From Paraspadella gotoi (Eukaryota; Animalia; Chaetognatha): a stretch of 64,000 nucleotides of DNA. The position numbers and the translations under genes were made by a program. This document shows, one piece after another, positions 32,681 through 54,600 of this stretch. The number at the start of each line of letters is the position of its first letter. Position 1 is the first letter of the stretch. The stretch lies in contig JBJCIZ010000810.1 in assembly GCA_051294375.1 (NCBI GenBank), positions 14,887 to 78,886 of the forward strand. The letters are read 5' to 3'. The notes beneath the pieces were generated by a model that made no database searches, was not told where the DNA came from, and saw only the letters and a list, made by a program, of their open reading frames with translations.

Positions 32681-32725
32681 GACGGACATGTTTCGGCTTT
32701 AGTTGTACAAGCCTTCATCGGCGTC
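32681..32725 (-). ncRNA. Minimal type I hammerhead-like motif (Penelope-like-element type)
   Basis: Minus strand reads GACG-CCGATGA-A-GGCT(loop)AGCC-GAAA-CATG-TC-CGTC; core has C in place of U4. Confidence 0.45.
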
Positions 32726-32967
32726 AGAGATATTTGTGAACTTTTACATTCTGTTATTTATCAGTAGTTAATTGTTGAAATATTTATTTCACCTTTAGTT
32801 TAAACAATTTATCTTTGTTGAACATTACAAAAATGTATTGTTTTTCAAATATTCTCTCTCTCTCTCTCTCTCTCTCTTTCTGTCAATTTTTCACCATTTA
32901 GTTTCTTTTCACAATCTAGCTCATTCTGTCCTCACCTTAACTTGTCCTCACATCTGACCACTATTCT

Positions 32968-33004
<37 letters not shown>

Positions 33005-33046
33005 TTTCCTTTGCACAAACTTTTTTGAAAATTCACAAATATCTCT

Positions 33047-33091
33047 GACGCCGATGAAGGCTTGTACAACTAAAGCTGAAACATGTCCGTC
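33047..33091 (+). ncRNA. Minimal type I hammerhead-like motif, inverted copy
   Basis: GACG-CCGATGA-A-GGCT(loop)AGCT-GAAA-CATG-TC-CGTC; lies in an inverted pair 32630-32745 / 33030-33140. Confidence 0.45.
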
Positions 33092-33881
33092 TCATACTAA
33101 TAAAATCGTTGTTTGAACAATCTAAAAACGCTTTCTATCAATATTATTCAAGTAAACAGTACCAAAATGGTTTTGAGCAAAACAAAAAACTGATTGAACT
33201 GAATCTCTCTGTCTCAATGACTTTTTATCATTGCTTCACTGTCTTACTATCTTTAAGGATTAAGTTACAAGAAACAATCATTGCAATAGTATTTTCATGT
33301 GCTTTTTATTGCTTAATATTATTTTTTTATCCTATCTGCTGATCAAACTATACATACTAGCGTTTTAATTTGATTTTATAACATTTATTTAAATTTTTAT
33401 ATTAGATTAATATGTTTTTATTAAATTAAAATTTTACTGTGAAACGTTAATCCCATTTGCATAATGGAGTAACCCGATTTTTATTACGAACCTTTTGGCT
33501 TTGTAGACAAAAAATCGTTCTATCTCAAATCTCTTATTTTGGTACCAAGGTAATATTCCCAAGGTTTTGTAAAGATATTCCAACCCGTCCCATAGGAAGC
33601 TTGCCAGACTAACTACATTTAAGAATTTATGTCAAGTTTCACTGTCCCTCGTCTAGCTCTGGTACTAAAAAGAGAACTTGTCACAATACATATATTTAGT
33701 TTAGTGTCTTGCCAAGCGGCTAAAAAGTCCTAAACCAACTTTTAGAGGAGGCTTTAATTTGCACCTGAAGACGACGTTAACTTACCATTTTTATTTTACA
33801 TATGGATAGTCCACGATCTGAGCTTTACAAATCTGCCGGAACAAAGGCGTAGTTTTCACGTTTTCATCTTGAAATTATTTT

Positions 33882-34454
33882 AGAGATATATGTTTACACC
33901 TTCTAGCCATCAGTGATAAGGATAAGCGAAGCGAACTTGAGTGTTTTAATCGGAATCCTGTGATTAAATCTGTTTTTAATCTGAATCTTGTGATTAAATC
34001 GACGGAGATACTTGAGAATAAAGATTTCGATTGTTTGTATTACTGTTTTTTGCTGAACTAGTAGAGATGCTCAATAATAGATAACTATGAGGAAATAAAA
34101 GTTGGCGATTGGTAAACAAACAGTCTCTAACCGAGTCTCGCCGATTGTCGACTTTAGAATGGCTTCTGGAAGAGGAGGGGAAGAAGAAGAAGGCAGGTTC
34201 AGTCCCTTGTTGATAGACCTCACGGAGGAGGATGAAGATGATACTCACCCCCCCATCCTCCCCCTCTCCTCCTTCACCCCCTCCTCCCACCTCATGGATA
34301 GAAAATGGGGGAGAGGAGGGGAGGAGGAGAGGGGTGGAGGAGTTGGGGGGTGGATGGATGGAAAATGGGGGTTACTCATCCTCGGAAATCGAGTTAAGAG
34401 AAGTCGGGGGGGCCTTTCTCGATTCTCCGAGGCTTCCCGAGTCAACTCGGAAGA
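33882..34454 (+). repeat. Left TIR of the Maverick (~570 bp)
   Basis: Reverse complement of 60552-61122; starts AGAGATATATGTTTACACC. Confidence 0.9.
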
Positions 34455-35106
34455 CCTCCTTAGTGTCGTTGTCGTTGTCGGTCTCGTCGTCGTCGTTTGT
34501 CTCGGCGTCGTCGTCGTCGTCCGTCTCGGCGTCGTTGTCGTCGCCGTGAGGGATAAGTGTCGAGATCTGATAAGAGAGAGAGAAGAGAGAAAAAAAAATT
34601 CGAGGCGAAAAAAAAACATTCAAGGCGAAAAAAAACCATTCGAGGCGAAAAAAAATAAACTTACAACAAGAGACGAAAGCGTTCCATGGCGGCGCGCGTA
34701 AAGCGCCAGCATTGGTCGCGGACGAACGCTGTCAGAAACAAGAGAGAAAGAGACGACTAGTTAGTGTTTCCGTTGCCATGACCCAATTCTTCTTGAAAAG
34801 CTTACTTTCTGTTTTTCCTTCTGTTTACGCAATTCTGGAAGAGAGAGAGAAAGAAAGGAATTAGTATAAATGTTAATATTTTTTGTGTTATCCCAATATA
34901 CACTGTAAATACACTAACATTACACTGTTCCGATTCCCCTAAAACGGGGCCTTCTTGAAGTTTGAGGTTGTTGCTATTGGTCAATTTGACCAAAAAAAAA
35001 AAACTATAAAAAGTTTCTTTTTTTTTTAATTCTAAAAATTAAAAAAACGCCAATAAGTATAAATATCAGAAAAAAAATCCAAAAAAATATTAATTCTATG
35101 TCTATC

Positions 35107-35680
35107 ATGGATTTATCCCAAAAACCATCACACTGTTTAAACAACGTTTCAAGATTCCCACATATGTATTTTTTTTAGTGGAAAAACGACTTTAATTCTA
35201 CGGCTTTTGCGCAACATATCAAGCGTCTGTTCTACCCCAGTTAACAAAATAACATATTTTTATGAACGGTTCAATCCAGAATTCGACAAGGCTAAAGAGG
35301 AAATTCCAAATATTGAATTTCGTCAAGGGGCGGATGAATCCTACTTCTCCGATAATGTAGAAGATGAAATACCCACCGATGGTCAAGAGGGGTTACCTCA
35401 TAATATCATCGTATTAGATGACAATCTGAAATCGTATTCAAAAAATTGGTTGATGATAGCCTTTTCGGTGATGATTCATCATAAAAAAAGTCTATCATAG
35501 CCGTCTCTCACAAGATTTTTTCACAGACAAATAAAGAATTACGTTTTATCCAAGGTCAGTGCTCATATTTAATCTTATGTAATTTGAGGAGGGATCGCTC
35601 ATCTCTCATTCACCTCGGCAGACAATTGGAGCCAAGATGTCCCTTAAGTTTACTGGAAATATTTGATGACATTAATTAAT
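35107..35680 (+). pseudogene. A32/FtsK-like genome packaging ATPase (frameshifted)
   Basis: SGKTTLILRLL (Walker A, first Gly missing), NIIVLDD (Walker B), FSVMIHHK, then after a frameshift LRFIQGQCSYLILCNLRRDRSSLIHLGRQLEP. Confidence 0.85.
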
Positions 35681-35719: not shown

Positions 35720-36058
35720 ATGAATTCTTCCCTAGCCGTGAAAAGATTCAAAGAAAATCTTCCGTTCTTGAATCAAATCAAAAAATTAACCGCTTCTCAA
35801 CAAAGAAAAGATTTTCTTCTCACCCTCAGCGACATTTGTTTAAACATATTAAAAGAAAACATAAAATTAAAACTGTCACAAATAGAAAAACTAAGAAAGT
35901 TTAAACACATTTTACACGGATTATCTTTAAAGAGAACCTCTTTGAAGCAAAGAAAGAAATTCGTTCAGAAAGGTGGGTTTCTCTCAACTGTTCTTTCCTT
36001 TTTACCATTGGCTGCTATGTTAATTAACCAAATAGTTCAATCTACCAAAAAAAAGTAA
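35720..36058 (+). CDS. Conserved Maverick small basic protein with QKGG|FL motif and C-terminal amphipathic helix
   Basis: ICLNILKENIKL...KLRKFK..L..L...SLKQRKKFVQKGGFLSTVLSFLP is the pattern of the ORF that follows the ATPase in animal Mavericks. Confidence 0.75.
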   Translation: MNSSLAVKRFKENLPFLNQIKKLTASQQRKDFLLTLSDICLNILKENIKLKLSQIEKLRKFKHILHGLSLKRTSLKQRKKFVQKGGFLSTVLSFLPLAAMLINQIVQSTKKK

Positions 36059-36063
36059 TAATA

Positions 36064-36780
36064 ATGACTCAAAGAAAACAACCCTTAAGATTCAGCGAAA
36101 AGATGTTTCTTATTTCAGAAAGAGATCTTAATAATTATGGATTGGATAAAAATAAACAGGAGATTAAAAAAAAATATTTACCTGATGATATAAAAGTTCG
36201 CACATTGAACGACGAGTTTATTCGTTCCAAGGCCCACGAAGAAGTTTTAGAAGCCCAGAATTTGGCCCATCTGCAATCAAAGGTACAACCAATTTTACAA
36301 TCTTTGTCATCTTTCGGTTCTCCCGATTTAAATTCACAGCTGACAAACTCGTTACAATTCATCCCTAATGTAAAGATCGAAAACAATCAGGTTTTTCTCG
36401 ATGATAACTCGCTGGGGACTTTGTCAGATATCTTATCTGATTTAAAAGCAAACAATATTTCTAACAACCCTTTTAAAATTCAATCTCGTTTGTACAAATT
36501 GATCGAAAACAATTTAGCAAAGGAAAAAGAACAAAAAAAGAGAAAACGAATCAAACTTACCGACGATAATGAAGATGACGACGAATTAGAAAAGGAGATT
36601 GTTGCGCAGGTAGGTCGCCCTAGAGGCCGACCACCCAAGAAAAAGGTTTCTCCCGGTAAGGCCAAAGTTCCCGTGAGGTCTACGACAAGGACAAGGCCCT
36701 CCACTCGTTCTTCTTCTAATAAAGTTGCAAGCAATCCGCCCCTGCGAGATGTCGGCGGCGTCAAATGGTTCGGAGTCTGA
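36064..36780 (+). CDS. Maverick pre-integrase ORF, 238 aa, with AT-hook-like GRPRGRP and basic tail
   Basis: Open frame; N-terminal KMFLIS and terminal W; position between the QKGG protein and the integrase. Confidence 0.7.
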   Translation: MTQRKQPLRFSEKMFLISERDLNNYGLDKNKQEIKKKYLPDDIKVRTLNDEFIRSKAHEEVLEAQNLAHLQSKVQPILQSLSSFGSPDLNSQLTNSLQFIPNVKIENNQVFLDDNSLGTLSDILSDLKANNISNNPFKIQSRLYKLIENNLAKEKEQKKRKRIKLTDDNEDDDELEKEIVAQVGRPRGRPPKKKVSPGKAKVPVRSTTRTRPSTRSSSNKVASNPPLRDVGGVKWFGV

Positions 36781-36789
36781 AAAAAAAGA

Positions 36790-37679
36790 AAATGATATAT
36801 TGCGTAAAGCATATTATCAAATGCCCGCGATAAGCGCTCTCGCTTCCGAAACTGAGTTTTTAAAATGGGCTAAACGATTAAAGTCAGAAAATATCCCACA
36901 AACAAAAGCAAAAGACTTTTTAGAGGCTCAAAAAACGGCGGTGGCTTACAAACAGATTAGGAGACCAAAACGTTACTATAGAAACATACCCAGAATGAAA
37001 GTAAATTCTAATTGGTTAGTTGACCCCGCCGATTTGGTCGAATTAAAAAAATTTTCTGTTTATAGATTCGCATTCTGCGTCATTGACAATTTTAGTAAAT
37101 TATCTTTTGTGACCTTGTTAAAGAAAAAAACCACTTCACTGGAATGACAGACCGACGAAGATCTTAACCGGACTTTCACCGTCCCAAGTTCACTGGAATC
37201 CTGATAAATACGAAAAAAGAGTTAGGGAAAATTATTTGCTTCGGTCTAGAATACACAAAGAGAGAATAAGAAAATATTATAAAACAAAAGAAAAACTTAA
37301 TGTGGGAGATTCTGTGCTTTTGGCTAAACCCAAAACATTACTGAGTCCCAGAGGTTATCATTCTCCTTTCGACGCTTCCCAGATTTTTAAAATAAAATCA
37401 AAATTAAACTCGACGCCGCCCACCTTTAAATTGGTCAACTCAGAAGGGAAAGATCATAAAGGCGTTTTTTACCGATACAGTTTGGCTAAAATAAATCCAA
37501 CTAATTCTTCCGACTTTTATTCATTAAAATCCGTGAGAAAAAGAAAAAGTGGAGAAAAACAATTTCTAGTTTCAAAACTGGGTGAAACCAAATCAAACTG
37601 GATCGACGAAAAAACCTTTAAACAATTAAAAAATGATGAAAAGGGATTTTATGGTCAGGCTGTGGAGCTCGGACAGTAA
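36790..37679 (+). pseudogene. Maverick retroviral-like (rve) integrase with central deletion and chromo-like C-terminus
   Basis: LRKAYY...DFLEAQ...KQIRR...WLVDPADL...CVIDNFSK...LKKK, then an out-of-frame jump at ~37135 to WNDRPTKILTGLSP, VGDSVLL, PPTFKL, GVFY and KQFLVS..NWI. Confidence 0.88.
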
Positions 37680-38655
37680 ACAATATTTCCCATCTAATTC
37701 CTCATCAAATTTTACGAATAAGCTGCCAGAAAGTATCATCATACCTCCAGAGATCCTTTATTGAGGTTGGGGTCTCTGAGTTATCTTACGTGGATGACTT
37801 TGAGAACATCGTTCCTGGAAGAAAAAATGTCGTAAGGGTAATACAATTTATTTCTTAAAGAAATACAAACAAGTTCTTTAATTAATATTTTTCTATTTTT
37901 AGGTTTTTGACTGGTTAGTCGAAATGCCAGTTGGTCATCCAAAAAATCCCTATCCTACAACTGTCTGGGGAGATTTTTATGAACTCAGCATATAGAAGGG
38001 AAAATACGACGGTTTTTTAATATGCAGAACTTTGAATAAGTTTATACAAGAAAATGTACCCAGACTTCAAGATGATGATGTGTTTTCATTCAATCAAGAT
38101 GAAGGTTATATAGAATATAAAACTGAAAATAAGTGGTTAACTATAGAAATCGAAGGTGAAATTTTATACATAAATGGGATTGTGGAATTCAAAGGACTCT
38201 GGATTAGTTACGATAGGAAAAAGCAAATCGTCGTTTCAATATTCATATCCCTTGTTGAACCAAGATGGGAGCCCTCAGTTGGACGCCGACGGGAATCCTA
38301 GGGTCGAAACGAGATTTTTTAGCAACGACAGAACGATGAAAAGTCTGGACGAGACAAATAGTCACTTTTATACCCCATCCAATTATATTTAGAAGATCTC
38401 GCTTTGATATATACTTCAATTTTTTCTGTTGGCCTAATGGGAATTCTATGTAAATACAATAAAAGTTCAAAGAACTAATGGGAGAGTTATGCAAGATTTT
38501 CACAATATTCAATATTTTCCACTGGCTAAAAATTATATCGATTTTATTGATATAAGTTTAAAGAATATAAACGGAGACTCCCTGTATTTTACCGAGAAAT
38601 CTGCGAAACAGCCTGTATTCATCACTCTACATTTTCGCCCAGCAAGGAGTATAAG
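37633..38655 (+). pseudogene. Minor capsid protein (penton), intron-containing, frameshifted
   Basis: FMVRLWSSDSKQYFPSNSSSNFTNKLP...EVGVSELSY...FENI at the N-terminus; QYFPL...IDISL...G...F...VFITLHFR at the C-terminus; intron 37832(or 37838)-37902. Confidence 0.85.
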
Positions 38656-38691
38656 AAGAAACATCATTGAGAGAGAGAGAGAAGAAGAAAA

Positions 38692-39981
38692 AACAAGTTT
38701 GAGCAAACAATGTCGGATCTGCCTACGATAATTAATTAATTAATTAATTAATCGATTAATTAATTAATTAATTTTAATATGTAATAATTAATTTTAAATT
38801 TATATTCAACTTATCATCATCGATGTCCTTAAAATTGGGTTAGGACAGTTATTAAATATGTTTTGTTTACATTTTATCAAAACAAACAAATATCCTTTAT
38901 TTTATTTTATGTCTCCTTGTCTCTCTCACTCTCTCTCTCTCTCTCTCTTTTTATGCAATTGCGACGATCTTTATGCTTTTAAGATTTTTTTAACTTGCAT
39001 AATTTTTTCACATTAATTAATTAATTAATTAACTAATTAATTAATTTAAACATTTATTAGTAATCATTAATATTAAAGATTCAAGTAAATGTGACTTATG
39101 TTTTCCATCTAAAATCCATTTCCACTGGCACAATTCCGTCAAAACTTTATATAGTTATTATATATTAATAAATATTTAAAAGCTTCAGTGCAACAATCCA
39201 ATGAACTAAATCAAAAAGTTACATTGAAAATCGATTTAGTAGTAAAAGGAAAAAAAAATTTAAAGAGAACTAGGAGTTATAAAAAGTGTTCAATTTTGGC
39301 CCGCCTTACTAGATATTAGGCCGGAACAGGTTGAAAACTAGAAGTTCTCTCAAATGGTTAATGGTTAATGGTTAAGCGACTATTAAATAATATAAAATGA
39401 AAATAATTTTTAAAATTTTGCTTATCAATTTTTTTATAGATTCTGATAGAGCTTTAAAAGTTAGATAAAGGTTATTAATACAACTTTTTTTTTGTTTTAT
39501 TAATGAAAAATTTTTAAAAATAAAATTCAGCCAATAATGATAATGATGATAATTTTTTAAGGTTTTTTCTATTTTTAACCAATTTATTGTCAAAATTTGA
39601 AAAAATTATAGTACTAACTTTCATTTAACTTTTTAAGCTCTACAAGAATCCGTTCTTAAAAAAATCAAATTTTTAAAATTTTTTTTGTCATTTGTTATAT
39701 TATTAATAAATATTTAAAAGCTTCAGTGCAACAACCCAATGAACTAATTCAAAAAGTTACATTGAAATCGATTTAGTAGTAGAAGGAAAAAAGAAATTTT
39801 TTTGAGAGAACTAGAAGTTATAAAAAGTGTTCAATTTTGGCCCACCTTACTAGATATATTGCATGTGATTAAACAATGTTATCGGAATAATAATTTTATC
39901 AATTTTATGTATTTTGTAAGTATTTTAATTATTTTTATTCAGTGAGTAAAATAACTTTTTTATTCGCTAATTTTTATTTCG

Positions 39982-40021
<40 letters not shown>

Positions 40022-40165
40022 AATTGCAACGATCCTTATGCTCATTTTTCTGCTCTCTCTCTGAAGAGAAAAGGCCGAGACCGACGGAGACGTCCAGATC
40101 TGACCCATTCGACCGATTGACCGATCGACCGGACGGACTGACCTGACTCTTTCTCCACCTCTTCT

Positions 40166-40198
<33 letters not shown>

Positions 40199-40562
40199 CA
40201 AACTTACTAGGACGAGATCAAACAAGACAGATTTAGATTCACTGGATCACATTTTAGAGAGACCGTCAACTACTTTCTTACAAAGTTTCTATTACGTTTT
40301 TACTGGAGAATCTTCTACGATTTATTTGATTCTTCTCGATTTGATCTCGATTTTCTCCACGGATTTTATTTACATTTTATTACATTTTTTTACTTTTATT
40401 CACGCATTATTCTTTTCCGACTTTTCGAGCTTCAGTTCATAAAACGTTTTGGGATACTTTTCGCCAGATAAGTTACGACCAAGTGGACCATCCTCACCTC
40501 AAGAGGCTCTCTCTCTCTCTCTTTGCAATTGCGACGATCCTATGCTCATTTTTCTGCTCTCT

Positions 40563-40602
<40 letters not shown>

Positions 40603-42331
40603 TAATAAAGATTCAAGTAAATGTAACTTATGTTTTTTCCATTTAAACTCATTTCCACTGGCACAATTCCGTCAAAACTTTATATCTAGCTTCTTCACAC
40701 AATTTCCTACCCGCTCACAAAATTTCATTTTAATCTATTATTGGTTAAAATAAGTAAAAAGATTCAAGTAAATGTGACTCATATTTTTTTCATTTAAACT
40801 CATTTCCACTCGTACGTTTCCACCGAAACTTTATATCAAGCATCGTTACACATTTTTCTACCCACACAAAAAATTTGAACTCAATCTATCCATCCAATTA
40901 TAATTAATTACTAATTAGAGTACTTATTGGTTAAAATAATTAAAAATATTTTAGTAAATGCGACTTATGTTTTTTCCTCTTAAACTCACACGATTCCGTC
41001 GAAACTTTATATCCAGCTTTATCACACACTTTCCTACCCACACACAAAATTTCTTTTCCAATCCAACCAGCCAATCACGAGTTATTGGAGCTTTGCTAAG
41101 GTGGGACGGATGGACGGATTGATTGACTGATTAATTAATTATTGATTAATTAATTGACTAATTGATTAATTAACTGATTAATTATTTGATTTATTAATAC
41201 ATCCTGGATATACATTTAATATAAAAGGAAAAAGAATTATAATGAATTAGTGAAACAGGTTTTTTTGTGTTTTTTTCCATTTAAACTCATTTTCACTCAA
41301 AAGATTCCATCGAAACTTGGTTTCCTGTTCAATCACACACTTTTCTACTCACATACAAAATTCCAGGTCAATCGATAATTAAGTGGTAATAAGCTAACTT
41401 GGTCAACTTGCATAATTTTATCAACTGGCATAATTTTATCAACTGGCATAATTTTATCAACTGGCCTAATTTGGTCAACTGGCCTAATTTGGTCAACTAG
41501 CATAATTCAACTTGCAGAATTTGGTCAACTGGCATAATTTGGTCAACTAAGAATTTGGTCAACTGGCATATTTTTGTCAATTGGCATAATTTGGTCAATC
41601 AATCAATCAATCAATCAACATCAATCAATCAATCAGAGAGAGATAGAGAGAAACTTTAAAAAATTCAAATTAAATGTGTCTTTTGGTTTTCTAATTTGAA
41701 CTCTTTTCCACTCCTACGATTCCATCAAAAAATTTATATCCAGCTTTATCACATACTTTCCTACCCACACACAAAATTCCATTTCGATTTATCTATTCAA
41801 TTTTTAATAAACATAATAATTATGAGTAAATTGAAGTAAAATACTTCAAGTAAATATGACTTTTGTTTTTCCATTTTAACTCATTTCCACTCGCACGATT
41901 CCATCGAAACTTTATATCCAGCTCAATCACACACTTCCCTACCATCATACAAAATTTCAAGTCAATTGCCCTATCCACTCATGAGCAATTGGCGTTCAAA
42001 TAGTGAAATATATTTTTTTTGTTTTTTCCATTTAAACCAATTTCCACTCGCACGATTCCCTCGAAACTTCATATCCATCTCAATCACACAGTTTCCTACC
42101 CACACACAAAATTTCATACCAATCCATCCATACAATCACGAGTAATTGGAGTTTTTTGCTAAGGTGGGACGACGGACGGACGACGGACATCGTTTTTTTT
42201 GCATAATTTATCATAATTCGATGTTCTGACATGATATAAGTGTGTGCCCGACAATATTGAGGGGCGGACCGACCGACCGAAAAAGTGAGTTAGAGAGTCG
42301 GGATCTGCTGATAAGCAGATCCGACTAAAAA
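38692..42331 (-). mobile_element. Expanded Helentron-type (HINE-like) composite insertion between the penton and core genes
   Basis: Same termini as 11871-12547 (AACAAGTTTGAGCAAACAA-TGTCGGATCTG ... GTCGGGATCTGCTGATAAGCAGATCCGACTAAAAA); repeated ~150-bp core units, 18-bp minisatellite, (GGAC)n and (TC)n tracts. Confidence 0.7.
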
Positions 42332-42340
42332 TCTGACCTC

Positions 42341-42820
42341 ATGATTTATCCACTCAAACTACCTTTCAATCATTTGCGGGGGTTATCAAAATATGCCACT
42401 CCTACTTATCGTGGGTCTGGATATGGGGGAATTATTGGCCATTCCGTCCCTCAGACTGGTCAGAACATGTTTCAGTCCCTCGCCAGCTTTTTCAAACCGC
42501 TTTTAAGGTCCATTGGTCCAGCGGTTAAGTCCTTAAAACCTTGGGCTTTGAAAGTTATGAAAAAATTGGGAAAGGCAACGGTGGACAGCGGTATAGGAGC
42601 TGACGCTTTAACGGGCAGGTTACAACGAAGGAAGCCTTAAAAGAGGGCGTTACGGAAACTAAAAAAAAAGGAAAAAAAAATTTAAAAAAAGAAATTCCTG
42701 AGCAAACCTATAAAAGAATTAAAACATAAAAAAATCTTCAGTTTGGTTCGGGGAAAAAAAAAAAAAAAAAGCGACGTAGAAAAGAAGACAAAAAAAAACC
42801 GCGACAGAGCAAACTGTTAA
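42341..42820 (+). pseudogene. Maverick basic core protein, copy 1 (homopolymer frameshifts)
   Basis: Same sequence as 44243-44728 with indels. Confidence 0.7.
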
Positions 42821-42838
42821 AAATATTCTATTATCGTC

Positions 42839-44213
42839 ATGGCCTTTGCGGACGATAACCTGACTCGCGGATATGGTGTGGATCCACACGCGGAATGCGT
42901 TCACGGGGCTCTGGATCTGTTACAAACCAGCCTATGATGCAAAAGCAAGTGGAATCTTGTTACTATGAGGAAATTTTACCTCTAAACTCACTGGCTGAGA
43001 ATAGGTAATAATAAATTCTTAATTGTAAACTGAAAAAGAATAATTAGTCTTTCAACATGTTTTTTTTTCAGTACTGCGAATTCTATCCATTTTTCGTTGC
43101 CGCCTTCCATGGATATGACAGCTTTGAATGAAAGTTACTACTCTGTAACTCTCAAGGTCGTTAAAAGTTTGGGTGCGCCTTTGGATCCGTTTACGGCGCC
43201 AAATGCAACGACGAAAAAGGGTAATCACGTGGCTTTAACCCAAATGGCCGCTTCTAGTTTATGGGCGGACGTCAATTATAAGCTGCAGCATGTCTACACC
43301 AACGATGTGAATCAAACATACCCTTACAAGGCAGATCTACTCGTCGAGCTCAACTATTCTAAAAACGTCAAGGAAAAAAAAATGCGCCTGGCTGGTTGGT
43401 GTTCGGATCCGGACAAAACGGTAGAGTTGCCCAATGCCTTAGCAAGCGAAGAATCGGGTTTTAAAACCCACGCATCTTGGACGAAGAGTGGTGAATTGCT
43501 TTTATACGGCGCCATCTTTTCACCAATGTTCTTACAATCGAGATTATTATTGCCACAAACTTACAGCAATCTAGAATTTCAAAAATCTTCTATGGCTTTT
43601 GTACTTGATAGCAACAGCGATAACAACGAATTTAAAGTGGTACTAACGGGAATGAGCTTGTATCTCAAAAGGGTCGTCATGGCTGCTTCGTTCAAGTTGC
43701 AACTCGAGGATAAATTGGCGCGTGGCAGTCTCGCAAGATACGTTTGCAAAGTGACCAGCGTTCGTACTTTTAACATCTCGGCCAATCAGAAACTGGCCAC
43801 GTTCGAATCAATCTATGACAACAATATAATTCCATTTTTCAGCGCCATCGCAATTGTGACGACCGAGAGTTTTGTGGGAAATTTCAGAAATCCTTTTAAT
43901 TATCACCATCACAATGTGACATCGTTAAAGGTGTCTTATTCTAAACTCACTTTGCCCGGAACGGACGGCTTCAAGACAAATTTTCATACGGGAGAAGAAG
44001 ACTACTTACAAGGGTATTTAAATCTTCAAAGGGACGACTTCCATCTCAACGGTTGCATCGACTTGACTTTGGACGAGTGGGCCAAAAAAGGATATACCAT
44101 CTGGAATATAGGTAAAGAAGATTAAAATTAATTTCGTACGAAAAAACTACAACTTAAATTTCCCCCCCTTTTTTTTCAGGAACTCCTTATTGGACCCCTT
44201 ACAACAGCGACCA
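42839..44213 (+). CDS. Major capsid protein (double jelly-roll), copy 1, two introns, runs into a gap
   Basis: ECVHGALDLLQP..VQ..VE..YYEEILPLNSL, intron 43005-43071, IHFSLPP.MD..ALNESY..V.LKV, YPYKA, FLQSRLL, NPFNYHH, GYTIW, intron 44112-44179. Exon 1 has small indels in this copy that are absent from the 44748-44883 copy. Confidence 0.9.
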
Positions 44214-44242
44214 NNNNNNNNNNCGACTAAAAATCTGACCTC

Positions 44243-44728
44243 ATGATTTATCCACTCAAACTACCTTTCAATCATTTGCGGGTGGGGTTATCAAAATATG
44301 CCACTCCTACTTATCGTGGGTCTGGATATGGGGGAATTATTGGCCATTCCGTCCCTCAGACTGGTCAGAACATGTTTCAGTCCCTCGCCAGCTTTTTCAA
44401 ACCGCTTTTAAGGTCCATTGGTCCAGCGGTTAAGTCCTTAAAACCTTGGGCTTTGAAAGTTATGAAAAAATTGGGAAAGGCAACGGTGGACAGCGGTATA
44501 GGAGCTGACGCTTTAACGGGCAGGTTACAACCGAAGGAAGCCTTAAAAGAGGGCGTTACGGAAACTAAAAAAAAAGCAAAAAAAAATTTAAAAAAAGAAT
44601 TCCTGAGCAAACCTATAAAAGAATTAAAACATAAAAAAAAGCTTCAGTTTGGTTCGGGGAAAAAAAAAAAAAAAAAGCGACGTAGAAAAAAGAAGACAAA
44701 AAAAAACCGCGACAGAGCAAACTGTTAA
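44243..44728 (+). CDS. Maverick basic core protein (adenovirus pVII/pX-like), 161 aa
   Basis: YRGSGYGG, QTG..MFQSLASFFKPLL amphipathic segment, QFGSG followed by a poly-K/R tail; lies directly upstream of the major capsid gene. Confidence 0.75.
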   Translation: MIYPLKLPFNHLRVGLSKYATPTYRGSGYGGIIGHSVPQTGQNMFQSLASFFKPLLRSIGPAVKSLKPWALKVMKKLGKATVDSGIGADALTGRLQPKEALKEGVTETKKKAKKNLKKEFLSKPIKELKHKKKLQFGSGKKKKKKRRRKKKTKKNRDRANC

Positions 44729-44883
44729 AAATATTCTATTAATCGTCATGGCCTTTGCGGACGATAACCTGACTCGCGGATATGGTGTGGATCCACACGC
44801 GGAATGCGTTCACGGGGCTCTGGATCTGTTACAACCAGCCTATGTGCAAAAGCAAGTGGAATCTTGTTACTATGAGGAAATTT

Positions 44884-47720
44884 CGATAATTAAGTGGTTA
44901 ATGAGCTAACTTGGGTCCACTTGGCATAAATTTATCAACTGGGCATAATTTTATCATATAATACAACTGGCTAATTTAGGTCAACTGGCCTTAATTTGGT
45001 CAATGCGTAGCATAATTCAACTGCATTGGCATGATGATTTGTTATTAGATTGGTCACGAGTTCTTGTCTGGCAAATTTAGTCAAGTCTAAACATCAATCA
45101 TCAATTCAATCAACTCAATAATTCAGTAGCAGGATAGAAGAACTTACATACTATAATAAAATTCAAATAATGGTGTCTTTGTGGTTTTCTCTAAATTTGA
45201 ACTCTTTTCCACTCCTACGATTCCATCAAAAAATTTATATCCAGCTTTATCACATACTTTCCTACCCACACCAAAATATTCCATTTCGATTTATCTATTC
45301 AATTTTTAATAAACATAATAATTATGAGTAATTTGAAGTAAAATACTTCAAGTAAATATGACTTTGTTTTTTCCATTTTAACTCATTTCCACTCGCACGA
45401 TTCCATCGAAACTTTATATCCAGCTCAATCACACACTTCCCTACCATCATACAAAATTTCAAGTCAATTGCCCTATCACTCATGAGCATTGGCGTTCAAA
45501 ATAGTGAAATATATTTTTTTGTTTTTTCCATTTAAACCAATTTCCACTCGCACGATTCCCTCGAAACTTCATATCCATCTCAATCACACAGTTTCCTACC
45601 CACACACAAAATTTCATACCAATCCATCCATACAATCACGAGTAATTGGAGTTTTGCTATAGGTGGACGGACGGACGGACGGACGGACATCGTTTTTTTT
45701 TGGCATAATTTATCATAATTCGATGTTCTGACATGATATAAGTGTGTGCCCGACAATATTGAGGGGCGCGGACCGACGGACCGAAAAGTGAGTTAGAGAG
45801 TCGGGATCTGCTGATAAGCAGATCCGACTAAAAATCTGACCTCATGATTTATCACTCAAACTACCTTTCAATCATTTGCGGTGGGGTTATCAAAATATGC
45901 CACTCCTACTTATCGTGGGTCTGGATATGGGAATTATTGGCATTCCGTCCCTCAGACTGGTCAGAACATGTTTCAGTCCCTCGCCAGCTTTTTCAAACCG
46001 CTTTTAAGGTTCCATTGGTCCAGCGGTTAAGTCCTTAAAACCTTGGGCTTTGAAAGTTATGAAAAAATTGGGAAAGGCAACGGTGGACAGCGCGTATAGG
46101 AGCTGACGCTTTAACGGGCAGGTTACAAACCGAAGGAAGCCTTAAAAGAGGGCGTTACGGAAACTAAAAAAAAAAGGCAAAAAAAAATTTAAAAGAATTC
46201 CTGAGCAAACCTATAAAAGAATTAAAACATAAAAAAAACTTCAGTTTGGTTCGGGAAAAAAAAAAAAAAAAAGCGACGTAGAGAAAAAGAAGACAAAAAA
46301 AAACCGCGACAGAGCAAACTGTTTAAAAATATTCTATTAATCGTCATGGCCTTGCGGACGATACCTGACTCGCGGATATGGTGTGGATCCACACGCGGAA
46401 TGCGTTCACGGGGCTCTGGATCTGTTACACGACCAGCCTATGTGCAAAAGCAAGTGGAATCTTGTTACTATGAGGAATTTTACCTCTAAACTCACTGGCA
46501 TGGAATAGGTTATATATTCTTAATTGTAAACTGAAAAAGAATAATTAGTCTTTCAACATGTTTTTTTTCAGTACTGCGAATTCTATCCATTTTCGTTGCC
46601 GCCTTCCATGGATATGACAGCTTTGAATGAAAGTTACTACTCTGTAATCTTCAAGTCGTTAAAAGTTTGGGTGCGCCTTTGGATCCGTTTACGGCGCCAA
46701 ATGCAACGACGAAAAAGGGTAATCACGTGGCTTTAACCCAAATGGCCGCTTCTAGTTTATGGCGGACGTCAATTATAAGCTGCAGATGTCTACACCAACG
46801 ATGTGAATCAAACATACCCTTACAAGGCAGATCTACTCGTCGAGCTCAACTATTCTAAAACGTCAAGGAAAAAAAATGCGCCTGGCTGGTTGGTGTTCGG
46901 ATCCGGACAAAACGGTAGAGTTGCCCAATGCCTTAGCAAGCGAAGAATCGGGTTTTAAAACCCACGCATCTTGGACGAAGAGTGGTGAATTGCTTTTATA
47001 CGGCGCCATCTTTTCACCAATGTTCTATACAATCGAGATTATTATTGCCACAAACTTACAGCGATCTAGAATTTCAAAAATCTTCTATGGCTTTTGTACT
47101 CGATAGCAACAGCGATAACAACGAATTTAAAGTGGTACTAACGGGAATGAGCTTGTATCTCAAAAGGGTCGTCATGGCTGCTTCGTTCAAGTTGCAACTC
47201 GAGGATAAATTGGCGCGTGGCAGTCTCGCAAGATACGTTTGCAAAGTGACCAGCGTTCGTACTTTTAACATCTCGGCCAATCAGAAACTGGCCACGTTCG
47301 AATCAATCTATGACAACATATAATTCCATTTTTCAGGCCATCGCAATTGTGACGACCGAGAGTTTTGTGGGAAATTTCAGAAATCCTTTTAATTATCACC
47401 ATCCAATGTGACATCGTTAAAGGTGTCTTATTCTAAACTCACTTGCCCGGACGGACGGCTTCAAGACAAATTTTCATACGGGAGAAGAAGACTACTTACA
47501 AGGGTATTTAAATCTTCAAAGGGACGACTTCCATCTCAACGGTTGCATCGACTTGACTTTGGACGAGTGGGCCAAAAAAGGATATACCATCTGGAATATA
47601 GGTAAAGAGAGATTTAAATTAATTTCGTACGAAAAAACTAAACAATTAAATTTCCCCCCCTTTTTTTTCAGGAACTCCTTATTGGACCCTTACAACAGCG
47701 ACCATGCTGAAATGAGACGA
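44884..47720 (+). repeat. Indel-rich tandem re-copy of 41373-44213 (HINE end, core, major capsid)
   Basis: Differs from the first copy almost only by 1-2 nt indels. Confidence 0.85.
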
Positions 47721-48483
47721 TCGATAATAAGGCGTAGTGAAAGTTACTATACGAAAATTCTAAAAGTCAATTATGAACAACATACCATCAGTGAACATTA
47801 ATTTGTAAAAAAAATTAATTTTATGTTTTTTAATTTTCGGCAGTAGGGCTAATATTTATATTATAGTACTATCCTTATAAAATCAAAATTTTCAAAGTAG
47901 GCTTTTCTTAATTTTGATTGCAGATTTGAATTCTTCGTCAAAAGTTGATAGAAGAAAATATAAATCATTTTAAAAAATTTCTTTCATTAAGTGGTGTTAA
48001 AAATTAAAAAAACTATATTATATATATAAAAAGTTAATTTTCAGCTTAAAATATAGCTTTTCTCTAATTTTTGACCCACTTAATGAAGGAATTTTCAAAA
48101 AAGAGTTATATTTCTTTTTATCAACTTTTTATGACGAATCCAAATCTGCAAAAAAATCTTTAAAAAAAACTGTTTTGAAATTTTAACATTTATTGGTTTA
48201 GTACTAGTATAAATATGGCTTACTGCGTAAATTGTAAAATTTATTATAAATTTTTTGATTACATAAATGTTCATTATATATAATGTTGTTCGTTCTCCAC
48301 TTTTAGAATTTTAGTTAAAGTTAAATTTAGAAATTTTACTACGCCTTAGTCGATAATGCAAGACTTCAGATCCAATTCCATCCAAAATCCGAAAACAAAG
48401 CTTTAACAGTATTGATTTTATCGACTTTTGATGCTACTTTAACAATGTCATCTGACTGAAAAGGTGTCAAAAGAGATTACTAA
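46346..48483 (+). pseudogene. Major capsid protein, full-length noisy copy interrupted by a MITE
   Basis: Same introns as copy 1; removing 47728-48348 gives HAEMRR-VDNARLQIQF...LTVLILSTFDATLTM...VKRDY* (48349-48483, one internal stop). Confidence 0.8.
47728..48348. mobile_element. hAT-like MITE inserted in the last major capsid exon
   Basis: TIR TAAGGCGTAGT...ACTACGCCTTA; 8-bp TSD (G/A)TCGATAA; second copy at 105-626. Confidence 0.8.
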
Positions 48484-48501
48484 AAAAACAAAACAAAAAA
48501 C

Positions 48502-48568
48502 ATGAATACTTTGGAAATTGAAAAAAATTCTAACAGGACGTCTGCACTAAAAATCTATTTTTGGGAGT
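48502..48568 (+). pseudogene. True N-terminus of the adenain protease (MNTLEIEK..RTSALKIYF-LG), cut by a gap
   Basis: Starts 18 nt after the major capsid stop; joins naturally to VFPMNRVP at 57980. Confidence 0.65.
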
Positions 48569-48593
48569 NNNNNNNNNNNNNNNNNNNNNNNNN

Positions 48594-49150
48594 TTACCTC
48601 TAAACTCACTGGCTGAGAAATAGGTAATAATAAATTCTTAATTGTAAACTGAAAAAGAATAATTAGTCTTTCAACATGTTTTTTTTCAGTACTGCGAATT
48701 CTATCCATTTTCTTCGTTGCCGCCTTCCATGGATATGACAGCTTTGAATGAAAGTTACTACTCTGTAACTCTCAAGTCGTTAAAAGTTTGGGTGCGCCTT
48801 TGGATCCGTTTACGGCGCCAAATGCAACGACGAAAAAGGCGTAATCACGTGGCTTTAACCCAAATGGCCGCTTCTAGTTTATGGGCGGACGTCAATTATA
48901 AGCTGCACATGTCTACACCAACGATGTGAATCAAACATACCTTACAAGGCAGATCTACTCGTCGAGCTCAACTATTCTAAAAAGTCAAGGAAAAAAAAAT
49001 GCGCCTGGCTGGTTGGTGTTCGGATCCGGACAAAACGGTAGAGTTGCCCAATGCCTTAGCAAGCGAAAATCGGGTTTTAAAACCACGCATCTTGGACGAA
49101 GAGTGGTGAATTGCTTTTATACGGCGCCATCTTTTCACCAATGTTCTTAC
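48594..49150 (+). pseudogene. Major capsid fragment truncated by a retroelement insertion
   Basis: Matches 42975-43535 including intron 1; homology stops abruptly at ATGTTCTTAC (49150). Confidence 0.8.
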
Positions 49151-49490
49151 CGTAAAACAGTAGACCAAACCTTTTTGTTGGAAACACTTTAAATGTTTTT
49201 ACTAAGGAAGCATGTTTATTTATTTTCAACAGGTTATTCCAAGAGATGACGAGTTAAGAGAAAGAGGATATTAATTATTTCAGTTCTATTTCATACGTCC
49301 TCTAGATCGCGTTCAGTCTTCAATGTTCTTGGTTTCTCTCTCCCTTTCACTCCTCTTGCATGCTCTATCTATCCCTCCTCTCTCGTTAGTCTATGCCTCT
49401 CTCTCTCTCCTATCCTCCGTATGCTCTGCTCAGCTAAGTGCGTTGCGCGGTTGAGCTGTTCTAGCCGTCGATGGACCTTCCCCCCTTCTT
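49151..49490 (-). repeat. Putative 3' LTR (49151-49475) with polypurine tract (49476-49490)
   Basis: Minus-strand AAGAAGGGGGGAAGG just after env; AATAAA at ~49215; no second LTR in the window to confirm. Confidence 0.5.
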
Positions 49491-49569
49491 AAAAAGGGCC
49501 GTAGGAGGGTTTGTTGATAGCTATATCACCGACGAGCTTGATTTACGCTGTTGTATGGAGGAGCGTCGA

Positions 49570-51637
49570 AACCGAATTGTAGGATTAGTCTTTGCCGTCG
49601 CTGAACCGCAAGCTGCCTTCTCCTTTGTTCCTATATGCTGCGCAGGCCGGCAGAGCGTACAACATGATAAACTAGCAGCATGCATGATGCAATGCAACTC
49701 GTACGGGTAGTGCTGACATGTGATGATCCGATTGCCGATCGGTGGGCGCGATTGTTTGCCTAGGTCGCTCAGAGAGAGTGAAGGGGTGCGTCGGAAAGAT
49801 TTTTCTGAGAACGAGGTTACTGAGGCGTCGGTGTATCTCGGCCTTTTCTTTGGACGAATTCGTGTCGAACGCCAGCGCTCCTCGATGTTTCGCATGAACT
49901 TCTGTGCCGTGACATCCTGCGAACATAATATCGCTTCCGACGAGACGCAGTCGCGGGCGAGGAGACGGTCAGCGTCGCGTTATGCGTTTATGGCTCGCTC
50001 GCTGGCCGATTCGTATGGCCACCGTATCTCGAGACGGGTTGGTGTAGACGGCGCTAGGGTCGCTCCAGGGAATGATCGTAACTGAACTCAGGTTGAAATC
50101 CCCGCTATGGTCGATACCCTGTTCTTTCCTCTTGTATGCTGATCTGGCTTATGACGTGAATAGCTATGCGGCTGTGTTGCGGCGCAGCGCCAAGTGTCCT
50201 TTCGCTAAGTACCGCCGAGTTAGTCGCCGCGCAGTGATGCGCTGTACCCTGTTCCTTTTCCGACGGAAAGTGGCTTGATGCTTGGAGAGTAGATGTGCTT
50301 TCTCGGGCTGCGAAGGCGGCGCTCTTTCGTTTGGCGATACATAATCTCTGCGGCGGAGATGCGTCAGTGAAGCTGGTCAATCGGTCCTTGGTACGTTGGG
50401 CAGTGGCGTACGGACTTTCGATGATGCGCGCCAGCGGCGTGTGATCCTTTCGAATGAGGTCGGTCTGTCATTCGAAAACGACGAAAAAGTTGTGGTGAAG
50501 ACCGTGGCTGTTCGGCGCTGTGTTCTGCAGCCGCGTGAGCGTTCTTCTTTTCCGGCGATCTGAGTGTGAAGGGCGCCTGGCTGTTGAACCGGCGCGCAGG
50601 CGAATGGCATTTGTTATGTGGCAATCGGTGTTCCAGCATTGTTTGTTTCGAATGAAGGAAAATTGTGCAACGGGCCCAGCAGCTCCTGGTTTCACTACGA
50701 AGGAGACTGGCTGTTCCGTCTTTGCACGGTGGTGCCATTCCGCCGTTTGGCCAATGTTTCGCGGAAGTGTCGTTTCGCTCGGTCCGCCATTTGTCGGCGT
50801 TCTGGATAAAAAATCGTCGTGGCTTCTGAATTATACTCCTCTTCATGGCGTCCTCCGCTCGGCAGCTCCGTAGTTCCACGAGAATCAATTCCTCCTGGGT
50901 AACCGCACTGGCGCTGTGCGATGTCGGCAGCGCCCGTGCTTTCGTCCGTCTGGTCTCCTTGGATCTTTACTCCGCGAGAATCATAGAGCGTGAGTTCGAC
51001 AAGCGAGTTTCGCGTTTTCAGCCTTTCATTGGAATGTTCGTGGAATTGTGAATTTTTCTCCGGTGCCAGGCCGCCGTCGGCGTTCGTTTGTTTCCGATTC
51101 TATGGGTGACGGATGTTTAGTCCCCGATGGTAGCCACGCATGGCGGAGTGGGCGGAATAGGTCCGTGTCGTCCGTAGGTGCGAATGGGTAGTGGCCTCTC
51201 CGCGTGATCGTGTCGACCGCCATCGGAGATCGAGAACATTGGCTCCTCGGGAATCGTAAAATGGTCGATAACCGTCGATGTTTGGGTAACACTTATCGAC
51301 CAGCGGCCGCAGTACCTTCCGTCGCGTATGAATGGTGAGGTCGCATCCTTTGACTTCGTGTTCATAATTTTCCGGAAACGTAGACTATTTCCAACTTCGC
51401 CGAAAGGTTTTTCCTTCTGCTTTTCCGGCCATTTCGCCATCTGCGCTTCGTCTATCGCCAGCCGCGCGCGTGATCTGACGTCCTGTTGCAGTCGAACACT
51501 GTGACTCGCCGGTCCCAAGTGCGTCTGCTCCGAGGATTGACCTTCCGGTCGGAACTGGGTAAGTTGGGCGTCGGCGAATGTCCCGGGATATAGGCCTGCG
51601 GCGATGGGCGAGATGCGACGATGGTGGTGACTTTCAA
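49570..51637 (-). pseudogene. env-like gene resembling chuvirus-type envelope glycoprotein
   Basis: Across frameshifts: signal-like KVTTIV.LAIAAGLY, VTVFDC (51488-51505), EVKGCDLTIH..RYCGRWS (51300-51357), IG.TNADGG.TGEKF, QCGYPGG, GKGTGYSASLRGD (50223-50261), hydrophobic FIMLYAL near the end. Confidence 0.65.
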
Positions 51638-54600
51638 TTTTTCGTTATCCGTCTTTCTGGCTCCTTTCGAAAATTTAATTTTCCTTTTTATTGTTTGCGG
51701 GGAAATTTGGGCTTCTTATTTCTTAAATATCTTTTTTTTTTTTTTTTTTTTTTTTGTTTGAGAAATGATCTTCTCCCTTTTTTCCGCGTCCCCGGCAGAT
51801 CAACTTCGCAGAAGTTAGGTTAAATGTTGAAGCCAGCGACGTTAATGTTGGTTTCAACACGGTGAGGGATACGAGTGTTAAGAGAGAGAAGAAGAGAGAG
51901 TGGGGAGAGAGAGAGAGAGAGAGTAGAGAGAGAGAGTAAGGGGGCAGCCGTTGAGATAAGGGTCTCTAGATTCCATCGAGAGTTGTCGTTGTTGTTTGTG
52001 CTCTTAGTGGTTTAGGGCGTGAGGAGTTTACTGCGGTGATATTCTCTTTCTTTCTTTCTTTCTTTCTTTTTTCAACACTGTTGGATTGCCGTGTTTTTGC
52101 TGAACGCTAAAGAGCTTTGTTAAGAGGAAAAGAGTTTGAGAAGTCCGCGGTTTCACGCGCTTTGAGGCGGCGGCGGTGGTAGACGTAATTGGGCGTTTCC
52201 AACGCCTATCCTTGAAATGGTTTTCCGTCGATTTGAATTATTTTGTGCGGTCCAGTGTAAAAGCGATTTCACTTTATTTATACGTTCTTGGAGTGGCGGC
52301 CAGTTCCGGAATGAGATCGCGTCTGACGTAGACGAGGTCGCCGACAGAGAGTCGTTTCGGGTCGCGCAGGGCGGTTGTTTCAGTTTCGTGTAGCGGTGGA
52401 GTGGCGGCGATTCGCTGCGCCGCGACGCGTTCCGTGTGCGCGGTTTTGCCTGCTTTGCGCAGTTGCTTGCAAATTCGGTGAAGTGATTCCATAGAGAGCT
52501 TTCGTCCGCTGGTTCGAGATCCTCCGTCGATTCCAAACTGTAGCTCATGAAGGCGACATGTCTGTTTCCAACCGGAATGGGCGTGGCGGTTTTAGCGCCA
52601 ACAGGAAGGTGAGGGGCGCCGGGAGCCATCGCATTTGGGTCGTCGTCGAGAGCCTTTCTGAGCGCCTGTCGAATGCGCCCGCAATGTTCCCTTTCTGCCG
52701 CGATTACTATTTTGTCCTTGAATACGAGGACACGCTTCCGCACTCATATCCCAGTAAGTCTAGGATGCTTCGCATCTACTTCGCCCATTTAGTGAAGTCG
52801 CGCGTCGAAAGTTTATCTCGAGGTACGACCGTGAAGGCTGAAAAATTTGCTTTGTCAGTGCAGTGATACATAATGGTTTGCAATCTGCACGCGGAATCTG
52901 GGAAATCGCCCATGTGTGAGGCGGAGGCGTTGGTTCAGAAGGCGACTAAAACGTTATTGAAAAGCCCGCCGCTCGGAGGAAGTGCATAAACGTCTATGCA
53001 CAAGCGACGTCCCACGGGATTAAGCTCGCGTGTGTCGGGCCTGATTCCGTCTCGTTGAAATCTCATTTCAATCTGTCCGCCTTCCGGCGAAGTTTCGCAT
53101 TCGACGCACTATTTTCGAGCAAGCCGCCGACCAGGCCGGAGCGGCTGGCTAGCAACTGTGCGGGTGGATAGTACGCGCGGTTCGTTGTCAGCGGCCGCGG
53201 GTGGCCCAAACGCGGTCGTGGGATTAAGGCGGCATGATTTCCTCTAAGTTGTCGGGAGGGACAGATGAAGACGGCGAGGTCCATTGTTTCATTCCCGGAA
53301 ACCTATCACGCAGAGAATTCCATAGTCCGAGGTGGACAAAGTCTCAGCTACCGCGCCGAGAAAGAAATGCTTGCGTCTTTGTTAACCGCCTTCGCCTTGA
53401 TGGACCGGAAGTGGGTCTTGACGGCGTCGGTTCCAATTGGTGATCTGAGGATCGTCGCGACTGATGTTGATGTCTCGTTGCTTTGGTGCCATTTCTTTAC
53501 GTCAGCCCTTGAGACTGGGTAGGCGCGGGTCCGCGGTCAAAGTGGCTTGCCTTCAGCTCGGTTTCGAGGTCCTGGGCGTCGACGTCAAAGGGAGGCCGTC
53601 GATGGCGGTGTCGTAGACGAGCTCCTCGCCTTCTTGCCCAGGTGGCAGCTGTTGAGGCGGCTGTGGCGGAAGGGGTCGTGAGGGCGCCGGCCGGCGCGCG
53701 GTTCAGCCTGCGCCCCGCGGCTTGACGAGGGTCGTTGGCCGACGCCGGCAGGTTGGGCCGGCGACACGCTCCTGGGGTGGCGATGGCGAACGGCGGCGGG
53801 CCGGCGGATGGCGGTGCTTGCGCAGGCGACGCATCATTGCTCCAATCCGGCACTAAGATCATTCGGAGCCGGAAGCTGGGTTGAAAACTGGCTGAGGACG
53901 TGTCTCGGGGGAGGTTCGCAGCCGCGATGGTTTTTGCTTTAACAACCGCGTGTTTATGGCGCGCCTCGGCCGAAGGCTTCTTCGGGGCTCTCTTCATCGT
54001 GGTCTAAGCTCCGCAACAGTGATGAGCCACGGCGTCATCGGGTTTGTCTCGGAAGTCCAGCCACTGTTGAGTCCAGTGCGCGAAGGTAAGTCCCCAGGTG
54101 GTGAGTCTTGTATGAGAGAGACTTGGCCTGTGATTGGACCTGAAAGATTTTGGAGAGTTCGGTCTGATTTTCTCTTCCATAGGCGCTTTTTGGACGAAAT
54201 TTGCAGCCTGATGGCACATGTGGAGTCTTCGTGCTAGTATTATTTATGCATAACTCCCTGTCATTTGTCAAAAGTTCTAGCTCACGGGTGACCAAGGTTC
54301 CAGTCCTTTCGCCGATATCGTGCGGATAAGCGTTCGGCGTTTTTTTTTCGTTTCCGGAACAGTCGCCATAATAGACCGGCCGTTAGTGTTTTCTCTTTCG
54401 CTTGTCAAACCCTTTTTCGTTAAAGTACAAATTCGAAAAATTTCTTCCTTTCCCGAAAAGATTTTTCGTCTATCTCAGCGTGGCGGCGACGAAGGCGAGC
54501 GCGGGGCTGCCGCCAGTGTGGCAGTTCAAATGAACGCAGGCCATGGCTTCCCCGGTGACTGGAGCATCTTCGGAAGAAGCCAGGGGACGTAAGCTCCTGT

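Follow-up and report, generated by a model that had tools for sequence, protein, structure and literature searches.

Maverick/Polinton elements of animals have been described with uninterrupted core genes. In the genes of intact vertebrate Mavericks, introns have not been observed, in agreement with Kapitonov and Jurka 2006 (PMC8097293), and the core genes of nematode Mavericks are likewise intronless, introns being found in their cargo genes (10.1101/2022.07.12.499685); these and the other sources cited here by identifier were available in part, and what we draw from them refers to the available parts. Dinoflagellate Maverick-Polinton-like proviruses contain introners, acquired mostly after integration (PMC11957031), and ∼25% of introners lie in coding regions (PMC12166617). 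Among large DNA viruses, pandoravirus and mollivirus carry spliceosomal introns, which have been taken as a sign of nuclear transcription, and the major capsid genes of faustovirus and kaumoebavirus are split by group I introns (PMC11814242). In cryptophyte elements, group I introns occur in a small gene that lies upstream of the one for the major capsid protein (PMC12220804). Here, we analyzed a stretch of 64,000 nucleotides from the chaetognath Paraspadella gotoi (contig JBJCIZ010000810.1, positions 14,887 to 78,886), referred to below as the window. It contains a decayed Maverick/Polinton whose capsid genes are, in our judgment, probably cut by short GT-AG spliceosomal introns that were gained in the lineage and carried while the family multiplied. 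An earlier reading of the window, made from its letters only (the sequence-only reading), took it as a premise that animal Maverick core genes are normally single open reading frames (ORFs), and the vertebrate and nematode reports match that premise (PMC8097293, 10.1101/2022.07.12.499685).

The major capsid gene is interrupted on the forward strand by two segments with GT..AG ends, intron 1 (43005-43071, 67 nt, phase 2, AT fraction of 0.81) and intron 2 (44112-44179, 68 nt, phase 1, AT fraction of 0.72). A third forward-strand segment interrupts the minor capsid gene (37838-37902, 65 nt, phase 0, AT fraction of 0.85), and an alternative donor at 37832 would give it 71 nt and an AT fraction of 0.82. 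All three start with GT, end with a T-rich tract followed by AG, have a length that is not a multiple of 3, and contain stops in the upstream reading frame; the AT fraction is 0.72 to 0.85 inside the segments versus 0.54 to 0.65 in the 150-nt flanks. The sequence-only reading had placed the segments at these coordinates and described them as AT-rich, with stops, a pyrimidine tract, and a length that is not a multiple of 3, and all of this was borne out. GT..AG ends with a pyrimidine tract, by which U2-type introns are recognized, are thus present at three sites. A strict filter for short AT-rich GT[AG]A..YAG segments, designed with the introns already in view, found 2 matches in each capsid gene (those in the minor capsid gene being two donors with one acceptor), and none of 300 shuffled controls of either gene reached at least 2 matches. 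No similarity was found among the three introns, or between them and the rest of the 64-kb window, at an E value of ≤0.01. A fourth candidate, at 36055-36118, was dropped since its sequence overlaps the beginning of an ORF of 240 codons.

Exon 2 of the major capsid gene (43072-44111, forward strand) has 346 open codons and, according to structure prediction, is the core of a double jelly-roll major capsid protein. Its protein retrieved 1,356 library proteins at an E value of ≤0.001, with a best identity of 33%; the eight best relatives are 439 to 459 amino acids (aa) long, share 31 to 33% identity with it, and align to it over approximately their residues 50 to 396. The structure prediction proposed in the sequence-only reading yielded the expected fold for this exon: the AlphaFold2 model obtained with an alignment of 112 sequences had a predicted local distance difference test (pLDDT) score of 91.9, compared with only 29.7 for the single-sequence model, and it matched the Sputnik capsid (3j26; Z of 19.8, root mean square deviation of 3.1, 298 aligned), the Paramecium bursaria chlorella virus 1 (PBCV-1) capsid (Z of 19.4), and the mavirus capsid (Z of 18.3). 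PF21738 was matched by 7 of the 112 aligned relatives, and the top viral match among predicted structures was an uncharacterized protein of Cotesia bracovirus. The nearest Atlas clusters are named "Major capsid protein" and "F54H12.2-like" and are mostly eukaryotic, with Arthropoda the commonest group, an assignment that is a lead only at a recognition value of 2164, under the 2300 mark. PDB sequence searches gave nothing significant, and a word-indexed protein search confirmed 0 of 1,326 candidates with exon 2 and returned 2 matches with alignment A2. Two of the relatives of Maverick-type capsids, P0175 and P0176, were deposited as hypothetical proteins of a Candidatus Omnitrophica bacterial metagenome-assembled genome, a label that probably results from binning contamination.

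The remainder of the gene is placed around exon 2 by a capsid profile built from 131 full-length matches, in which exon 2 occupies positions 45 to 376. Exon 1 (42839-43004, forward strand) is broken by small indels and covers profile positions 18 to 46 at 42916-43002; in a repeat of the gene, positions 9 to 41 are found at 44796-44894. Exon 3 starts at 44180 and is cut by an assembly gap after 44213. It can be followed on the same strand in a downstream repeat (47672-48483) that has an insertion, indels, and a late in-frame stop, and in which 48355-48453 covers profile positions 396 to 427.

Most of the best capsid relatives cross both sites of the major capsid gene without interruption. Among the 150 best relatives, a single ORF spans the intron 1 site in 130, the intron 2 site in 131, and both sites in 113, the remaining 37 being partial sequences. 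The cut at intron 2 is the sole GT-AG cut among 644 stop-free cuts, and its junction is gap-free when added to the alignment of close relatives. With intron 2 removed, 14 codons separate an I-[YFW] strand from a conserved DH, compared with 36.7 with intron 2 kept; by the pattern used, the 14-codon spacing occurs in 5 of the 8 close relatives, one having 22 and two being unmatched. The coding DNA that bridges profile positions 376 and 396 comes to 19.3 codons, against an expected 19. At intron 1, just 2 of 828 stop-free cuts are GT-AG cuts; the stated cut is the better one and leaves a 2-residue insertion relative to the eight close relatives (with X placed at the break). The sequence-only reading had proposed that removal restores the frame and the motif spacing, and this held, without a gap at intron 2 and to within 2 residues at intron 1.

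The forward-strand gene at 37633-38680, frameshifted after its intron, is a putative minor capsid gene, so named for its position and motifs. A homologue occupies the corresponding place in L001, the sole locus recovered by scans of viral contigs and metagenomes for relatives, which found no intron-bearing relative. A tblastn search with the L001 minor capsid protein gave an E value of 9e-12 over 37636-38178. Against this intron-free protein, the best cut removes 68 nt ending at 37902 and falls between the two GT donors; the scores were 66 for the 65-nt cut, 66 for a 74-nt cut from 37829, and 62 for the 71-nt cut, compared with 48 and 31 for either flank alone. By this comparison, the acceptor at 37902 is firm, and the donor may be either 37838 or 37832. 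Taken together, the alignments indicate a precise interruption of genes that are uninterrupted in relatives; the match is exact at intron 2, whereas it is good to 2 codons at intron 1 and to 1 codon in the minor capsid gene.

Independent data on intron 2 came from contigs of a public run, X1, which contains 45% of the sampled words and which is RNA by guess only; two other runs, X2 and X3, yielded no contigs for this region, which carries no weight either way. Its contigs carry no strand; those placed on 42400-44213 bear on intron 2, and none covers intron 1. A 91-nt contig (depth of 3.3) without any difference from the window skips 68 nt with GT..AG ends that correspond exactly to 44112-44179. 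A 141-nt contig (depth of 4) keeps intron 2 and has 3 differences, two of them listed inside the intron. Both contigs stop at 44207 and overlap a third one that begins at 44178. In a 31-mer graph, such a pair could be the two arms of a splice bubble, and the 30-base side of the skipping contig would then be accounted for. The ends of intron 2 are confirmed by independent data, whether X1 is RNA or DNA. The sequence-only reading had called for spliced junctions, and 44111 and 44180 are indeed joined exactly in one contig, in a run whose RNA nature is a guess; we infer that the skip reflects RNA splicing, and intron 1 and the minor capsid intron, judged by their sequence and homology, would be spliced in the same way. 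Other X1 contigs differed from the window at 3 of 222, 5 of 248, and 13 of 345 bases, another of 190 nt being identical, which shows that several related copies or alleles exist. None of 18 differences in exons creates a stop, and 7 of the 18 lie at CpG.

The window also holds, at 44224-49150 on the forward strand and around assembly gaps, noisy repeats of the 41372-44213 stretch, detected by self-alignment. Intron 1 recurs at 46509-46571 and 48624-48689 and intron 2 at 47602-47671, consistent with the claim of the sequence-only reading that both major capsid introns recur in every repeat that covers them and are not read noise. Relative to the first copy, the repeats have 52, 11, and 11 gap positions and 6, 2, and 0 mismatches, respectively, and N runs of 10 and 25 bases adjoin them. 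Since the differences are dominated by indels and the N runs adjoin, the repeats look like redundant noisy re-reads of one locus, a pattern of unpolished long reads, and this is likely what they are. The sole sign of a second intron-bearing variant is thus the X1 contig with 3 differences.

Several results weigh against introns carried by a multiplying family. The in-window repeats are not independent family members, and recurrence among them was rejected as evidence of conservation in the family. A looser filter, applied to both strands of 12 kb of AT-rich flank, gave 7 matches; therefore, the pattern alone is no proof, and we gave more weight to the homology register and to the reads. The register itself is imperfect by score: the intron 1 cut ranks 35th of 828, the top-scoring cut being 6 nt longer, and the intron 2 cut ranks 136th of 644, a low rank explained by the just 10 residues that precede the gap downstream. 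The branch-point word YTRAY, which may not be the host consensus, lies 21 to 25 nt from the acceptor in the minor capsid intron only, compared with 52 to 53 nt in both major capsid introns. Only one contig shows the skip, from a run whose RNA nature is a guess, and the short side of that contig, with 30 bases, is one below the bridging threshold. The 18 exon differences comprise 11 nonsynonymous and 7 synonymous ones and give no clear sign of recent selection. Finally, the direction of change, a gain, is provisional from these sequences. In a FastTree phylogeny of 49 sequences (48 matches of at least 400 aa from the top 60, plus P0178, shorter matches being excluded), the window protein has a long branch of 1.0 substitutions per site and groups with 15 single-ORF relatives with a support of 0.995, which favors intron gain; however, a library of ORF-called proteins under-represents intron-bearing relatives, and only long ones were kept. 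P0020, P0062, P0150, and other matches that end near the intron 2 site were examined as possible intron-bearing relatives, and their ends and cluster records were not decisive.

We nevertheless consider an active ancestor with nuclear, spliced capsid genes the most likely explanation, because three unrelated canonical introns sit precisely in two capsid genes, because a variant that differs inside the intron shares one of them, and because the exon between the two major capsid introns is still an open frame of 346 codons. The explanation that survives best besides this one, which we nonetheless regard as unlikely, is that spliceable segments of the introner type entered only once this copy, or the immediate ancestor of it, had stopped moving, so that there would be no active intron-bearing lineage. 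The mostly postintegration introners of dinoflagellate proviruses (PMC11957031), ∼25% of introners lying in coding regions (PMC12166617), provide a precedent; this copy has gathered several other insertions, and AG or G|GT matches span the segment ends at all three sites, a possible trace of AG-targeting insertion. Yet the three introns are unlike one another and have no other copy within the window, intron 2 is also present in the variant that has substitutions within it, and three separate precise insertions into two adjacent dead genes would be improbable.

Were X1 DNA, the skip would mean an intron-free copy, through precise loss or as the ancestral state, in a family of mixed composition. 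That X1 is RNA by guess only and that its contigs cannot give the strand leave room for this explanation, but the skipping contig is identical to this copy at 91 of 91 positions, whereas three other exon contigs differ by 1.4 to 3.8%, and the cut falls exactly on GT..AG; we rate it as somewhat less probable still than late insertion. It is highly improbable that the segments arose in a dead gene through chance insertion of AT-rich DNA or through errors of assembly: the assembly is noisy, the AT-rich flank yields intron-like patterns by chance (7 in 12 kb), and the pattern at 36055-36118 that overlaps an ORF start looks false, but the segments recur in separate reads and keep register with relatives, and the exact skipping of intron 2 in independent data largely refutes this explanation.

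According to the reading that we favor, the genes of the element would be transcribed in the nucleus by the host RNA polymerase II, the host spliceosome would remove the 65- to 68-nt introns to yield the major and minor capsid mRNAs, and the active ancestor would have depended on splicing for capsid production. We infer that the introns are gains. Whether an old animal polintovirus lineage gained introns in its virion genes and then kept spreading with them seems to us evenly balanced. The sequence-only reading had proposed an intronised lineage that needs the host spliceosome. Capsid identity, gene order, intron register, and the X1 skip agree with this proposal; because the copy is decayed and a polymerase was not found, the dependence on the spliceosome concerns the active ancestor, and this copy probably makes no working capsid.

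The capsid genes belong to a decayed endogenous Maverick/Polinton, as indicated by the Maverick-type marker genes for integrase, ATPase, and protease that were recognized from sequence and by terminal inverted repeats. On one strand, the order is ATPase, two ORFs, integrase, minor capsid, PW-like gene, major capsid, and protease. The packaging ATPase gene (35100-35676, forward strand) is broken and has an SGKT motif at 35177; members of its nearest Atlas clusters carry PF04665 Pox_A32 in 28% and 10% of cases (score of 0.95, recognition of 3337), and no direct Pfam match was found. The retroviral-type integrase gene (36782-37679, forward strand) is also broken, and a tblastn search with the L001 integrase, an ORF that we take to be integrase-like from its position and motifs, gave an E value of 1.5e-8 over 37140-37622. 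A basic PW-like gene (42329-42830, forward strand), recognized by position and composition only, is frameshifted and lies just upstream of the major capsid gene; tblastn with its L001 counterpart gave no match. The adenain-like protease gene (57923-58330, forward strand) has GEHW and CGHH motifs; BLASTP against the partial L001 protease, encoded at the same position, gave an E value of 7e-5 with 28% identity over 57 aa, and no Pfam or PDB match was found. No polymerase was found: none of 127 ORF fragments matched any Pfam family at an E value of ≤0.001, in a gapped window and with a weak scan to which the ATPase and the retroelement were equally invisible, and no motif credible for a polymerase emerged from a scan for motifs. 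The place expected for the polymerase, before the ATPase, holds only ∼650 nt, which is too short for one, so the polymerase has likely been lost from this copy.

The left terminal inverted repeat (25003-34454, forward strand) is ∼2.7 kb long and is interrupted by 6.7 kb of inserted DNA with 180-bp inverted repeats at its ends (27158-27337 and 33721-33882). The right one (60552-63647, reverse strand) runs into an N gap at 63648, and the blocks of the two repeats share 84 to 98% identity. The termini of the element, where a Maverick would be expected to show an (AGT)2-type motif and a 6-bp target duplication, lie within or close to gaps. Within exon 3 of the major capsid gene, a noncoding insertion of 621 nt (47728-48348, no strand assigned) has terminal inverted repeats and an 8-bp flank that resembles a target duplication (7 of 8 match); it is presumably a hAT-type element, and a related second copy lies at 99-626 of the window. 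Between the minor capsid and PW-like genes, 3.6 kb of noncoding DNA (38700-42320) contains members of a 150-bp repeat family as well as an 18-bp tandem array, the latter also present at 12056-12195; this DNA is likely a host repeat that was inserted. The reverse strand of 49150-57600, between the capsid and protease genes, is GC-rich (0.48 to 0.61) and heavily frameshifted, with a YVDD reverse-transcriptase-like motif at 55547; it is probably a nested long terminal repeat (LTR) retrotransposon, and searches of it found neither LTRs nor Pfam matches.

Other observations concern the element and its flank. In the ATPase gene (35100-35190), a T-rich tract ends with AG at 35178, directly before the Walker A SGKT; the first half of the Walker A motif is unreadable upstream, and no donor was found within 45 to 110 nt. 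From its sequence, this tract may be what a deletion has left of the 3' end of a fourth intron. Downstream of the protease gene, a Ser/Asp-rich ORF (58374-58838) precedes an open ORF of 413 codons (58941-60182) with a Cys-rich first half and a low-complexity tail, and 0 of 4,125 word-indexed candidates were relatives of the 413-aa protein. The observed/expected CpG ratio in four element parts within 35100-60200 is 1.14 to 1.24 versus 0.79 in the flank, which, with 7 of the 18 X1 exon differences being CpG transitions, hints at methylation-driven decay. In the flank of the element, the reverse strand of 7430-10954 holds two long ORFs of 690 and 340 aa without useful Pfam E values, and a GDSL-like ORF lies at 2512-3144 (PF00657, E value of 3.6e-6).

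Adenoviruses make spliced late mRNAs. If our reading is true, introns in both capsid genes place their expression in the host nucleus with the host spliceosome, which argues against a virophage-like life in a cytoplasmic giant-virus factory and for nuclear, adenovirus-style capsid expression. Capsid introns thereby bear on the open question of whether and how animal Mavericks make virions, particles of animal Mavericks being so far unseen (PMC8097293). Intact elements have been defined by intronless ORFs (PMC8097293), and one survey ignores introns by design (10.1101/2025.04.19.649669); surveys of either kind would therefore miss spliced lineages or miscount them as degraded, and, if an old lineage did spread with its introns, current trees and counts of intact elements would lack a whole intron-bearing branch. 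Intron gains that are recent and datable, in genes as compact as those of viruses, are also informative on the origin of introns, and the exact junctions make it possible to distinguish capsid mRNA from genomic DNA in any RNA data.

Among known systems, the element shares with animal Mavericks its terminal inverted repeats and a double jelly-roll capsid protein of ∼450 aa (PMC8097293, 10.1101/2022.07.12.499685). Two published modules of vertebrate Mavericks have the same gene order as here, Xenopus tropicalis elements also being on one strand, whereas the vertebrate inverted repeats measure 46 to 1,447 bp compared with ∼2.7 kb here (PMC8097293). The closest sequences, P0001 to P0008, are metagenomic Polinton-type proteins that group with the window protein in the tree and have 29 to 33% identity to exon 2, all encoded by single ORFs of 439 to 459 aa. 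L001 has the same order of integrase, minor capsid, small basic gene, major capsid, and protease, but its genes read without breaks, whereas those of the window are broken and split by introns. Spliced Maverick core genes did not appear in the available parts of PMC8502044, PMC11296320, 10.1101/2023.08.22.554363, PMC6431247, PMC11244446, PMC5718144, 10.64898/2026.07.28.741278, and 10.64898/2026.10.13.758929. In the literature covered, we came across no animal Maverick whose capsid genes are reported to have spliceosomal introns; Repbase, supplements, and most subscription papers lay outside that scope and may hold some.

Large DNA viruses resemble the element in having viral genes, including jelly-roll capsid genes, split by introns (PMC11814242). 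Faustovirus and kaumoebavirus belong to other virus groups, and their capsid introns are self-splicing group I introns, unlike the 65- to 68-nt GT-AG introns here (PMC11814242). Dinoflagellate proviruses likewise have introns of spliceosomal type inside Polinton-like elements; their introners form repeated families and lie mostly outside coding sequence, whereas three unrelated introns lie inside capsid coding sequence here, and no spliced capsid gene is shown in the available parts of either report (PMC11957031, PMC12166617). The introns published for animal Mavericks are in cargo genes only, in contrast to the short GT-AG introns in both capsid genes of this element. Thus, introns in Polinton-like elements are already known from dinoflagellates, and what is new here is the probable splicing of capsid genes in an animal Maverick.

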